From an uncultured delta proteobacterium (GTDB lineage: Bacteria; Desulfobacterota; RBG-13-43-22), in assembly GCA_963743305.1 (NCBI GenBank), contig CAVUPH010000007.1, positions 96,001 to 160,000 of the forward strand: DNA of 64,000 nucleotides. The letters run 5' to 3'. Made by a program: the position numbers and the translations under genes. The notes under the pieces are model-generated. The model searched no databases. It was not told where the DNA came from and saw nothing but the letters and a program-made list of their open reading frames with translations. This document shows positions 12,550-44,379 of this stretch, in pieces (position 1 is the first letter of the stretch; each line of letters begins with the position of its first letter).

Positions 12550-14247
12550 ATGATGGCGTACTTACAACCCATTAATAAGGCTTTAAAACTTATTTTAGTT
12601 GTTTTTCTAGTCGTCATGGGTCTTCAGGCGTTTTCAGGGAAAGCTCAGGCCGGGACTATCCAGGGGACCGTCAGGGATTTTACCAGCGGAAACCCGATAT
12701 CCGGGATTTATGTGGAGGCCTTTGAGGTAAATTTTGGATATGTTTCCACCGGTGCTTCGCAAAACACCACGGATGCCAACGGGCAATACGCCTTAACGGT
12801 TTTTGGTAGCCCTAATGCCATTTATAAAGTATTCTTCCGTAGAACCAATTCCTCCATCACTTATATGGGCCAGTGGTATAACGACGCCTCTTCTTATTCC
12901 GCCGCGACCCCAGTAACGATTACCAGCGGGGCTACGGTTTCCGGCATCGATGCCTCCATGAAAATCGCCAGCGGAGGGTTTATATCCGGCCGGGTGACCG
13001 GGCCCAACGGCGCGGGGGTTTCAGGCGCCAACGTCTGGGTTTACGATTATGGCCAAAAAGTGCAATCGAAGCGTAGTCTGCTCTCGGCCGTTGCCGACAC
13101 TAATGGATATTATACTATTCTCTCGCCTGTCCCCCCCGGGACCTATAAAGTTGAATGTTATGATGGTGCTGTGGGAAGCAATAATCAGATCGAGTGGTGG
13201 CAAGGGAAAACCGGTTTCTCGACGGCGGATCCGTTTGTGGTCACTGCGGTGGGTGCTAACAAAGCCGATTGCCAACTTGCCGAGGGCGGGATAATTACCG
13301 GGGGCGTCACAGACCTATCGAACAGTCCAATCAATAACGCCGGCATAGTAGTCTATGATCAGAATCAAAGTATAGTTACTTATGGTTCCACGGACGTCAC
13401 CGGGATTTATACCATCAGGCGTATACCTCCCGGAAATTATAAGGTAAAGTTTAACGGCCCCTATAATACCAACTATTCCCCCCAATGGTATAACAATCAG
13501 GCCTCCTTCAACCAGGCGAATTGGGTCCCGGTGGTCGTCGGTAATCCCGCGTCCAATATCAATGCCCAGCTTCTTATCGGGGGAACTATCTCGGGGTCAA
13601 CCTCTACCGGCACCGCACTGGCCGACCGCCGTTCGCAGTCTGTGACGGGAGGGATCCTGGCGGGGTCCCCGACCTCCGGGGTTACCGTTAATGTGTACGA
13701 TGAATTCCAAAAGAAAGTTTCCTCCGGGGTGTCCGGCGTGGACGGCACCTTTTCGGTGGTGGGCCTTCCTTCCGGAAATTACAAAGTCGAGTTTACCCGA
13801 TATAATTTAGGGAGCACCTGGTTTAACGGTCATCGGACTTTTGACAGCGCCGACTGGGTTCCGGTGATTGCCGGGAGTACTAAACCCGAGGTAAGCGGAC
13901 AACTGGTTCCATCCGCGGTTATTTCCGGCAAAGTAACGGATACGCTGGGGACGGGGATAGCTAAAGTAACGGTGCGAGCCTATGACGACACGACGCTGGA
14001 ACAATTAAATCCCTCTGCTCTTACCGATAGCTTGGGTATTTACACGCTAAACAGCCTTTCTCCTGGGAGCAGCAAACTTTATTATGATTCCCATGGGACC
14101 GGTTTCTTTTCGGAATGGTGGGCTGAGAAAAAATCGGTAACCGAGGCGACCCCCATCGATCTCATCTCCGGGCAGACGTATGCCAACAAAGATGCCGTGT
14201 TGGACCCCAGTAAGGAAGTATATTTGCCTTTGGTCCTGAAAAATTAA
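12550..14247 (+). CDS. Secreted protein with repeated carboxypeptidase-regulatory-like beta-sandwich domains
   Basis: Signal peptide; repeats ISG.VT...TD..G.Y....L..G.YKV.F...QWY; C-terminal YLPLVLKN. Confidence 0.8.
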   Translation: MMAYLQPINKALKLILVVFLVVMGLQAFSGKAQAGTIQGTVRDFTSGNPISGIYVEAFEVNFGYVSTGASQNTTDANGQYALTVFGSPNAIYKVFFRRTNSSITYMGQWYNDASSYSAATPVTITSGATVSGIDASMKIASGGFISGRVTGPNGAGVSGANVWVYDYGQKVQSKRSLLSAVADTNGYYTILSPVPPGTYKVECYDGAVGSNNQIEWWQGKTGFSTADPFVVTAVGANKADCQLAEGGIITGGVTDLSNSPINNAGIVVYDQNQSIVTYGSTDVTGIYTIRRIPPGNYKVKFNGPYNTNYSPQWYNNQASFNQANWVPVVVGNPASNINAQLLIGGTISGSTSTGTALADRRSQSVTGGILAGSPTSGVTVNVYDEFQKKVSSGVSGVDGTFSVVGLPSGNYKVEFTRYNLGSTWFNGHRTFDSADWVPVIAGSTKPEVSGQLVPSAVISGKVTDTLGTGIAKVTVRAYDDTTLEQLNPSALTDSLGIYTLNSLSPGSSKLYYDSHGTGFFSEWWAEKKSVTEATPIDLISGQTYANKDAVLDPSKEVYLPLVLKN

Positions 14248-14248
14248 A

Positions 14249-42449: not shown

Positions 42450-42534
42450 GGGAGGTTTCCTTTCTTTCTTTTAAATGTTAGGTCAGACGTACTATCCCCC
42501 CGCTTGGGTTTCCAGGATTCGCCCTGTCCCTTCG

Positions 42535-44379
42535 TCATGGCTTTCTCAGGATCAGAGGCAACCCCAGTCGATGCGAATATAGCAGGTTTGCCGTCTCTAT
42601 GGTCAGGGTCAGGTTGTCGACGTAAAAACTGGTTATGTTCGCCCAGTCCGTTTTGGCGTGGAAACTGATGATGATAGGTATTCCGAAAAATTGGGAGGGA
42701 ATTTCCAGGCCGGGGGAGGACTTCCAGAAATCGGTCCAATCGAGGTTGCTTAAGATCAGCAGGTCCTGATAGACATAGATGTCATCCGCACGGGCTACTT
42801 CCACGTTCAGGTAATCCCAACTGAACCCGTCATTCTCCCAGGTATCGATGGCATACATGAACTTTAAGGTGGCCTTGGTGGCCGCAGCCGGAATGGTCAC
42901 CTCCTGAAACATGTAATCCAAGGCATCATCGTATCCTCCCAGCCAGGCCAGCCAGTTTCCCTGAAAGGCGCAATTGACTCCCGCCGGGCAGGGGACGACC
43001 CAGAAAATGAACCCGTTATCGATCCAGTTGCCGTCGTCGCCGTTTTCAAATCCCGGATTTTTCAGCAGATTGGTAAGGGTCCCGGAGCCGGTCTGAGAGA
43101 TGGCAATAGACTTGCTCGCGGCCGTAATAGTTCCGGTTCTGAGGATGCCCGAATTCGGGGAGACGGAATAAGTAACGGTCCCGGGACCGGTTCCGGAGGT
43201 ATTGGAGGTAAAGGTGATCCAGTTCACGTCCCTGGTGGTCGTCCAGGGGCAGCCGCTCTGGGTGTTTATGGTCAGGGTCCCTGGTCCGCCGCTGTCACCA
43301 TAATCCTGGTTGGAGGCCTGGATGGAATAGGTACAGGTCGGTGATCCGCCGCCGCTGAGCTGAACATCCAAGGTCTGCCAGAAAAAGGCGCCTAAGGGTT
43401 GGGCGTTGTAATAGTACTGGCAGTCGTAATTCAGGTTCATTCTGATACGGAACAGGCCGTTTGGGCGATTTCCCCCCGCGCCGGTCCCCCAACTGTTCAA
43501 CAGAAGCCAGGAGGGGTTGGCGGATCCGTCGTCGTATCCCAGAAGGACGACGGCGTGCCCCCCTCCTCCCCCTTGGGGATTGTAGATGGCCCCGCAATGA
43601 GCGCCCATGTCGAAAACCGCGTCTTCCCCCTGGTTGTTCCAAAAGTCGAAGAAGGTATTCCAGGCGGCCTGGTTGGGCAGAAAAAAACCGAACCAGATGG
43701 CTTTGCTCTGATTCAATACATTCTGGACATTGGTGATACTCGTTGATTGGTTCGACGACACCGGGACGGTAACCGGGGATATGGAATTGATGACGTAATT
43801 CGGAGTAGTGCCGATGGAGCCGCAGGAGACCAAACTCGAACCGGCTTCGCATTGCCGGTCCGCATCCGCGAAAAGGGCGTTGCCGTTTGTCCAGGGTACG
43901 GCGATCCCCCGCTGGCGGTACCAGTCGGCGAACATCTGCAGGGTCCCGCCGCAGCAGGCATATTGGTCCAGTTTACAGGAGTTCAGGAATTGGGTGGAAA
44001 GGCGGTCGGACACCCCGTTTTGAACGTGATGGGCGATCTCCAGGACCCCGGTGCCGGCCCAGTTCCAGCAATTGCCGCAGCTACCCTGTCTCCGCTCAGC
44101 GGGAACATAATTCAGATGGCTGAGCAGGCTCAGCGAAGTCCCCAGGTTGGCGTCTCTCAGCAGGCGGAGGTTTTTTTGAATTCCGGCATCGAGGTGGGCC
44201 AACGGCGTGGACTTATACTGCCGGATCCACTCCAGCAGGGTCTCCGGATCGGGACGCATGATCGAGGCGTTTTTGATTTCGAAATCCGGGGCCGGTTTCT
44301 CCTGGCCCTGGACGGAGGAGAGGCTGGACAAAACCAGCAAAACCATTATCCAATAAAGGGCTGCTTTTTTCATGGGCAT
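42535..44379 (-). CDS. Secreted papain-family (C1) cysteine peptidase with BACON and beta-sandwich domains
   Basis: QGSCGNCW, GHAVVLLGY, LNSWG; SGCPWT..VNWIT BACON; C-terminal LGLPLILRKP. Confidence 0.88.
   Translation of the reverse strand: MPMKKAALYWIMVLLVLSSLSSVQGQEKPAPDFEIKNASIMRPDPETLLEWIRQYKSTPLAHLDAGIQKNLRLLRDANLGTSLSLLSHLNYVPAERRQGSCGNCWNWAGTGVLEIAHHVQNGVSDRLSTQFLNSCKLDQYACCGGTLQMFADWYRQRGIAVPWTNGNALFADADRQCEAGSSLVSCGSIGTTPNYVINSISPVTVPVSSNQSTSITNVQNVLNQSKAIWFGFFLPNQAAWNTFFDFWNNQGEDAVFDMGAHCGAIYNPQGGGGGHAVVLLGYDDGSANPSWLLLNSWGTGAGGNRPNGLFRIRMNLNYDCQYYYNAQPLGAFFWQTLDVQLSGGGSPTCTYSIQASNQDYGDSGGPGTLTINTQSGCPWTTTRDVNWITFTSNTSGTGPGTVTYSVSPNSGILRTGTITAASKSIAISQTGSGTLTNLLKNPGFENGDDGNWIDNGFIFWVVPCPAGVNCAFQGNWLAWLGGYDDALDYMFQEVTIPAAATKATLKFMYAIDTWENDGFSWDYLNVEVARADDIYVYQDLLILSNLDWTDFWKSSPGLEIPSQFFGIPIIISFHAKTDWANITSFYVDNLTLTIETANLLYSHRLGLPLILRKP

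Follow-up and report, generated by a model that had tools for sequence, protein, structure and literature searches.

Three mutually unrelated exported proteins encoded in a 64,000-nucleotide stretch of the genome of an uncultured delta proteobacterium (C7:96001-160000, on one of 43 contigs making up 4.9 Mb; hereafter the window) end in nearly the same short peptide, and judged from their sequence these tails are copies of the YLP-box, which NCBI catalogues as a putative sorting motif of Chloroflexota. In this genome, the YLP-box is a portable short linear motif that is selected at the level of the peptide and is carried by about 30 unrelated Sec-exported proteins. We propose, with a probability of roughly one half, that the box serves as an exposed, portable docking or retention motif, which would be read by a postulated non-sortase factor of the cell envelope. 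What is new here is the host phylum, the sharp gain of the motif in one clade, its N-terminal and internal placement in two protein families, the lack of a sortase and the exclusion of four candidate readers.

The window tails and the catalogued YLP-box

The first of the tagged window genes (12550..14247, + strand) encodes an exported CarboxypepD_reg / SdrD_B-like beta-sandwich repeat protein (PF13620, five stretches, E 2.2e-39) whose C-terminal box reads VYLPLVLKN (14218..14244, + strand). An exported calcineurin-like metallophosphoesterase (18573..19640, - strand; PF00149, E 7e-14) terminates in IYLPLILKQ (18576..18602, - strand). The third protein, encoded at 42535..44379 on the - strand, is an exported papain-family C1 peptidase (PF00112, E 3.4e-15) with a BACON domain (a weak PF13004 match) and a MAM / cleaved-adhesin-like jelly-roll domain, which was delimited by jackhmmer and alignment to residues 441-592 (42604..43059, - strand) and ends 14 residues upstream of the tail LGLPLILRKP (42538..42567, - strand). 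An orthologue of this peptidase in genome G005, 59% identical in the catalytic region, terminates in FFYLPLILK, and LGLPLILRKP therefore represents a diverged copy of the box. The translations agree with the first-pass annotation, which had placed the three open reading frames (ORFs) and their tails at these coordinates and had described the proteins as unrelated: Pfam assigns them CarboxypepD_reg repeats, Metallophos, and Peptidase_C1 plus BACON, respectively. As had also been noted, a second metallophosphoesterase of the window (50854-51669) is without the tail; it ends in ITHRWVPLD.

Two NCBIfam models, NF053834 ('ultrashort_CTERM') and NF050076 ('sort_motif_YLP'), are both described as 'YLP-box putative sorting motif-containing protein'. 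When the tails were scanned as 29-residue pieces against the curated cut-offs (10 and 15 bits, respectively), two of the three window tails passed NF053834, that of the repeat protein with 13.9 bits and that of the metallophosphoesterase with 13.2 bits; on NF050076 the same two scored 13.8 and 12.3 bits, under its cut-off, and the diverged tail of the C1 peptidase matched neither model. Pfam and NCBIfam scans of the three full-length proteins placed no model over the tails, and neither these scans nor those of the 29-residue pieces fitted the tail to an LPXTG, PEP-CTERM or type IX secretion system (T9SS) model, as had been claimed from the letters. From the 32 tails collected across the genome (described below), 9 exceed the cut-off of NF053834, 3 reach 15 bits on NF050076, and 16 are listed by one or the other. 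In a six-frame search, NF050076 had matches in 11 of the 14 control genomes too, and in two of these they exceeded the cut-off.

NF053834 and NF050076 already list the tail, and the central novelty claim of the first-pass annotation, namely that the signal is uncharacterised, therefore fails. That annotation had named an existing family model which explains the tail as a finding that would count against it; the two models do name the tail but do not explain it, and the statement that no machinery has been assigned was borne out. We found no paper on the YLP-box motif or on either NCBIfam accession, nor anything relevant in a general literature search on protein sorting in Chloroflexota, and the main text of a myxosortase preprint contains none of the terms 'YLP', 'Chloroflex' and 'ultrashort'. 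Literature matches to the literal motif strings, as far as the accessible parts of these sources go, were only venom and other eukaryotic peptides, such as membrane-active crabrolin and temporin analogues. With the catalogued box, the tails share the consensus (aromatic-Leu-Pro, three hydrophobic residues, Lys/Arg), the position at the extreme C-terminus and the occurrence on many unrelated exported proteins. They differ from it in their host, which appears to be a Thermodesulfobacteriota-type diderm and not a member of Chloroflexota, in that Lys is as frequent as Arg, and in that no Pro/Thr linker precedes the tail.

How widely is the box used in this genome? Among 21295 six-frame ORFs of at least 60 residues, 33 of the 68 matches to LP[LIVM][LIVM][LIVMF][KR] lie 0-4 residues before the stop, where 2.37 would be expected (binomial P 6e-30); in the same ORF set, 0 of 30 matches to the reversed motif are C-terminal. 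A looser pattern gave 35 ORFs, of which C20_82708, C28_10849 and C34_73855 were set aside because they have no aromatic-Leu-Pro core. The consensus of the tails in this genome is [ILV]-[YFW]-L-P-[LIM]-[IVL]-[LVFM]-[KR], followed by 0-3 residues to the stop. With Pro counted as position 0, the 32 remaining tails all have Leu at position -1 and Pro at position 0; position -3 is held by Ile (13), Leu (11) or Val (5) and position -2 by Tyr (21), Phe (5), Trp (2) or His (2). Downstream, position +1 is Leu (25), Ile (5) or Met (2), position +2 is Ile (18), Val (9) or Leu (5), position +3 is Leu in 21 tails and otherwise hydrophobic, and position +4 is Arg (17) or Lys (15), beyond which come the stop (11), Pro (10) or another residue (11). 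At the invariant Leu before Pro, six of the six Leu codons are in use across the 32 tails, and this diversity argues for selection on the peptide and not for a DNA repeat.

Enrichment among proteins with signal peptides had been named as a check in the first-pass annotation, and it was seen as well: a crude signal-peptide heuristic scored 18 of 27 tail genes as positive, compared with 968 of 4787 (20%) other genes (Fisher P 2.5e-7), and several of the negative tail genes are plainly incomplete or are ORFs whose start has been set too far upstream. The 29 tail proteins encoded outside the window have differing domains of extracellular type, including TIG, PPC, Big_7, DUF5650, M23, NHL, Lcl_C, MBG/PKD, CBM96, RCC1/DUF11, DUF5122, thaumatin, beta-helix and LamG_3, and 12 of the 29 are without a Pfam match at E 1e-4.

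Two tagged genes appear to be split by frameshifts or assembly errors. At L002:7435-10274 (contig C4 of this genome), an ORF with PD40 and M23 domains stops where an ORF with a PPC domain and the tail starts, and at L149:1477-3182 the G005 orthologue of the window C1 peptidase switches frame before the jelly-roll domain and the tail.

Placement and structure of the box

Comparison of homologues reveals what the box replaces. Among the 120 best homologues of the window metallophosphoesterase, a YLP tail is found in one (P0001, 94% identical), while 44 stop right after the fold, 12 finish with a membrane helix followed by basic residues, and 30 have other extensions, for example a TIG domain. 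Four of the helix-plus-basic tails (P0003, P0007, P0013, P0042) matched best to IPTL-CTERM (11.8-19.4 bits, cut-off 20.5) or to the signal part of XrtH targets, all under the cut-offs. This comparison shows that the YLP-box takes the place of exosortase-type signals, or of no tail, in homologues. A search of 12 other genomes of the host's family at E 1e-30 did not find the metallophosphoesterase; the gene that bears the tail is therefore a recent one in this lineage.

The same set of homologues contains a different kind of ending. In 33 of the 120 (P0012, P0050 and others), the protein closes with ..(N/D)xLLLL(D/Q/N) directly before the stop, and the two that were scanned had no NCBIfam match; this LLLLD-type ending could represent another ultrashort C-terminal tag, so far without a catalogue entry. 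The consensus is not found at the end of any ORF of the present genome, in which three ORFs finish with a hydrophobic run plus an acidic residue but do not resemble it.

The first-pass annotation had described a C-terminal tag, which is true of many copies, but the same box also occurs just after signal peptides and between domains. Several proteins of this genome carry it soon after the signal peptide. In the family of C30_70011 (201 residues), 17 of 21 homologues have the box 2-4 residues past the predicted signal-peptide cleavage site, the remaining four being fragments that begin downstream of it, and orthologues of this N-terminal form all keep L39, P40 and L41, between flanks that vary. 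Internal boxes are found in two tandem peptidases (C12:86646-91229), in which an I42 inhibitor domain is followed by the C1 peptidase, a linker, the box and the jelly-roll. The 120 best homologues of one of these I42-C1 peptidases include 62 with a box, which in 60 of the 62 is internal and lies at one fixed junction; those that are named come from Deltaproteobacteria, Desulfobacterota, Chloroflexi, Anaerolineae and Candidatus Uhrbacteria. Taken together, these placements show that the box is usable at a free C-terminus, just past the signal-peptide cleavage site, or between domains.

At the tandem locus itself (L154; C12:85597-91229), both secreted peptidases combine an I42 chagasin-like inhibitor domain with a MAM / cleaved-adhesin-like domain, and the pair is kept in tag-rich genera. 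A neighboring gene encodes a 345-residue protein whose signal peptide is followed by the box-like sequence KLFLPLVITS.

AlphaFold2, run twice on alignments of 18 and 36 sequences, gave per-residue confidence (pLDDT) values of 91-97 for the jelly-roll and of about 51-58 for the box, to which the deeper run assigned no secondary structure. The YLP-box is thus predicted to be unstructured and to lie outside the adjoining folded domain. The earlier description of a portable tag on exported proteins, placed outside the catalytic folds and too short for a membrane anchor, stands.

Host lineage, distribution and the search for a reader

Proteins at least 90% identical to the host's own carry the names 'Deltaproteobacteria bacterium' and 'Thermodesulfobacteriota bacterium', and contigs bearing tail genes also encode lipid A acyltransferase, heptosyltransferase and MipA. 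By these signs, the host would be a Thermodesulfobacteriota-type diderm outside Chloroflexota. The first-pass annotation had linked such tails to secreted proteins of Chloroflexota, and this link proved to be real. A scan of one genome per species for TAYCTGCCNCTGRTNCTGMG, a pattern biased to GC-rich codon use, gave at least 123 loci; among the matches listed, 51 have the box 0-7 residues before a stop, preceded by 45 or more open codons, and 50 of these 51 belong by record title to Chloroflexota lineages (Anaerolineae, Thermoflexia, Chloroflexia, Ardenticatenaceae). The remaining C-terminal match among those listed, from Hyphomicrobium, apparently arose by chance.

Within the host's own phylum, a degenerate DNA pattern for Y-L-P-L-[IV]-L-[KR] was counted together with the same pattern read backwards as a control (in parentheses). 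The four genomes of the host's genus gave 18 (3), 26 (0), 19 (2) and 11 (1) matches and genomes of two neighboring genera 6 (0), 4 (3) and 7 (1), while counts were 0-5 (0-5) in 14 genomes of the largest sister genus and 0-5 in 20 genomes of other families. A stricter pattern, applied to 300 further genomes across the phylum, gave 12 matches in this genome and 8 in a congener (controls 0), and at most 3 in the 299 others. Both series of counts lead to the conclusion that, among the genomes searched, the tag is confined within the phylum to one small genus-level clade. Chloroflexota genomes used as positive controls gave pattern counts of 6 and 12, comparable to this genome, and an ORF of a Chloroflexia genome aligns with an I42-C1 peptidase at 39% identity over 483 residues, box included. 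We infer that the tag system is shared with Chloroflexota or was gained from them by horizontal transfer, and that the tag later spread to genes that were native or had newly been acquired.

Which factor might read the box? The sortase family PF04203 was found in none of 41 genomes (this genome and 40 relatives), whereas Gram-positive control genomes did match. This genome encodes a single PEP-CTERM-like protein and no IPTL-type tail. Around the tail genes, 185 proteins lie within four genes; the 149 of at least 110 residues were scanned with Pfam (leaving aside the glycosyltransferase discussed next) and all 185 were compared with each other by BLAST, and no neighbor family recurred except histidine kinases, glycosyltransferases and fragments of cargo.

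Two bases past the stop of the tagged repeat protein in the window begins a gene for a PMT_2-like GT-C membrane glycosyltransferase with C-terminal TPR repeats (14249-16192, + strand). As a reader this protein was rejected: its N-terminal domain was not found in the three other genomes of the genus, yet 5 of the 14 sister-genus genomes, which are tag-poor, do have it. The glycosyltransferase is without a paralogue here.

C1 peptidases track the tag in the family, being present in 3/3, 2/2 and 1/1 genomes of genera g1, g2 and g3, in 2/14 of g4 (weak matches) and in 0/20 of other families. As a PorU-like sorting enzyme they were nevertheless discarded, because PF00112 is found in one of five Chloroflexota genomes tested, four of which have matches to the box pattern. 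Immediately upstream of the window C1 peptidase and on the same strand lies a 162-residue ORF (44407-44895, - strand) with a hydrophobic N-terminus and no Pfam match.

The jelly-roll domain, like the C1 peptidases, follows the tag within the host's family, and five of the five jelly-roll domains of this genome adjoin a box. Among the 150 best of 5888 library representatives, 36 have a box alongside, with 52 boxes counted against 0 for the reversed motif; 28 domains have the box 5-45 residues upstream (mode 17; 23 of the 28 at 12-21) and 10 have it downstream. The best structural neighbors of the modeled domain of a paralogue are the K1-K3 adhesin domains of gingipain Kgp, the MAM domains of meprin and neuropilin, and carbohydrate-binding modules. 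An obligatory receptor role is contradicted by a sample of 61 Chloroflexota genomes: the domain, searched at E 1e-5, has no match in the two box-richest (55 and 19 matches), and of the 13 genomes that do have it, 10 are not box-rich; the sample includes G354, a genome flagged as unpublished (no domain match, one pattern match), on which no claim rests. In addition, the box is not docked on the domain in the AlphaFold2 models. From the Chloroflexota counts, we conclude that both the C1 peptidase and the jelly-roll are frequent cargo or companions of the box, not its reader.

CPBP / Rce1-like proteases were considered as well. Two such genes were found, one in an RHS-type toxin cluster and the other seemingly frameshifted, and they appear unrelated to the tag. 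In the cluster in question (L169; C43:11001-16000), RHS/YD repeats are followed by small ORFs and accompanied by a membrane protease of the CPBP family, as is typical of polymorphic toxin/immunity loci.

What the box may do

How might the YLP-box act on its cargo? We envision that the box would stay exposed after export and would be bound, without the help of a C-terminal membrane helix, by a postulated envelope receptor or processing factor, and that this factor would retain tagged proteins, enzymes as well as adhesin-like ones, at the cell envelope or direct them to it. Short linear motifs with dedicated reader domains are well known, as in the case of peroxisomal targeting signal 1 (PTS1) tripeptides, which are recognized by TPR domains, and of C-terminal peptides recognized by PDZ domains. 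In our reading, the box resembles these in being exposed, portable and unstructured in models, and it differs from them in not being restricted to the C-terminus. A more specific and decidedly tentative scenario is that Chloroflexota were the source from which one small diderm clade of Thermodesulfobacteriota acquired a sortase-free docking system, which recognizes 8-residue tags in linkers as well as at both protein ends and today handles about 30 cargo proteins.

A number of points weigh against a docking or retention motif with its own reader. Every candidate receptor or enzyme that was tried, be it the PMT-TPR glycosyltransferase, the C1 peptidases, the jelly-roll, the CPBP proteases or a sortase, failed. 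Half of the tails (16 of 32) are listed by neither NCBIfam model, the signal-peptide test used a home-made heuristic on a crude gene set, and the host was placed by the names of near-identical proteins, not by a marker-gene tree. Co-occurrence inside one family of related genomes is a single evolutionary event. Finally, an 8-residue hydrophobic peptide might act passively, without any receptor, and the conserved basic residue together with the internal boxes fits a cleavage site equally well.

Conceivably, then, the box marks domain boundaries as a site of proteolytic maturation, at which a cut after Lys/Arg would remove the trailing residues or module, or an N-terminal propeptide. Such a role would account for a last conserved position that is basic in each of the 32 tails and is followed by a short and variable remainder, and it would suit the 60 of 120 I42-C1 peptidase homologues in which the box separates the catalytic from the C-terminal domain. 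That downstream domain resembles the 'cleaved adhesin' domains of gingipains, which are released by cleavage after Arg/Lys, and several cargo proteins are themselves peptidases (C1, M23). We nonetheless consider this explanation unlikely: trimming 0-3 residues off 32 C-termini brings no obvious gain, and the Leu-Pro with its aromatic neighbor lies 5-6 residues upstream of the presumed cut, beyond what most processing sites need. Moreover, cleavage in proteins built of signal peptide, box and domain would free just a 10-residue peptide, and the narrow spacing between box and jelly-roll (see above) is not required of a mere cleavage site.

Less likely still, the box could be a passive interfacial anchor that dips into a membrane leaflet or a hydrophobic surface without a reader, much like the FLPLI... 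heads of venom and frog-skin peptides. Its hydrophobic composition with a terminal cationic residue, its occurrence at either terminus or in linkers, the failure to find a reader, and the literature matches to the literal strings, which in the accessible parts of those sources were solely membrane-active peptides, all fit such an anchor. An anchor of this kind should, however, tolerate many sequences, whereas all 32 tails keep Leu-Pro unchanged and two phyla share one consensus; eight residues would, by our own estimate, provide only a small membrane affinity; and the very narrow distribution in the phylum points to a required component that is specific to the lineage.

Might the box instead be a sorting signal of the covalent kind, which a transpeptidase resembling sortase, exosortase or PorU would cut and transfer? 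Two likenesses speak for it: exosortase signals (PEP-CTERM TIGR02595, IPTL-CTERM TIGR04174, XrtH targets) occupy the same site on homologous cargo, and the order of motif, hydrophobic stretch and basic residue gives the box the look of a miniature tripartite sorting signal. As regards the known systems in general, exosortase signals also have the same type of cargo and reach dozens of copies per genome, and LPXTG signals on secreted surface-type proteins place hydrophobic residues, then basic ones, behind a Leu-Pro core. The C-terminal domain (CTD) of T9SS cargo, processed by PorU, likewise marks the C-terminus of hydrolases and adhesins that a diderm secretes, and one type of YLP cargo, a cysteine peptidase followed by an adhesin-like jelly-roll, is reminiscent of gingipains. 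Against it, YLP tails have neither the helix nor the basic cluster of exosortase signals, end 0-3 residues after a single basic residue and match none of the models, and the genome has only one PEP-CTERM-like protein. The box also lacks the Thr-Gly of LPXTG, and the classical sortase version is already largely refuted by the 41 genomes without PF04203. The CTD of T9SS cargo is a folded domain of about 80 residues, compared with a shared part of 8-10 residues here, and the three window proteins have no match to TIGR04183 or PF18962. N-terminal and internal boxes are unsuited to enzymes that act on a C-terminal signal, and the C1 peptidases, the sole enzyme class that tracks the tag in the family, are found in one of the five Chloroflexota genomes tested. 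A covalent signal is, for these reasons, very improbable.

That the tails are alike by chance, derive from a DNA repeat or belong to the neighboring folds, as might be suspected of a motif so short and otherwise unsupported, is refuted by the enrichment (P ~1e-30, with no C-terminal match among 30 for the reversed motif), by the diverse codons at conserved positions, and by homologues that are complete without the tail and models in which confidence is low over the box beside a confident domain.

Two observations concern the genome beyond the tag. It has two EF-Tu genes with identical scores 16 kb apart (C2:41008-42204 and C2:57574-58770), the protein being alone in its 90%-identity cluster. 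An enoyl-CoA hydratase (L008:12162-12923, contig C13) has near-identical cluster mates named cyclohexa-1,5-dienecarbonyl-CoA hydratase, which hints at anaerobic benzoyl-CoA degradation in the host.

The YLP-box is thus a catalogued yet unexplained motif, for which the present host adds constraints that narrow the possible mechanisms: a diderm with lipopolysaccharide genes, no sortase, sites at the N-terminus, inside and at the C-terminus of proteins, and a peptide that is predicted to be unstructured. As the largest sister genus of the same family is without the tag, the clade offers a clean gain-of-system contrast by which the reader might be traced through comparative genomics. If such a reader were found, it would establish a novel type of sorting or surface retention of proteins, and the box would provide a very short, portable display tag.

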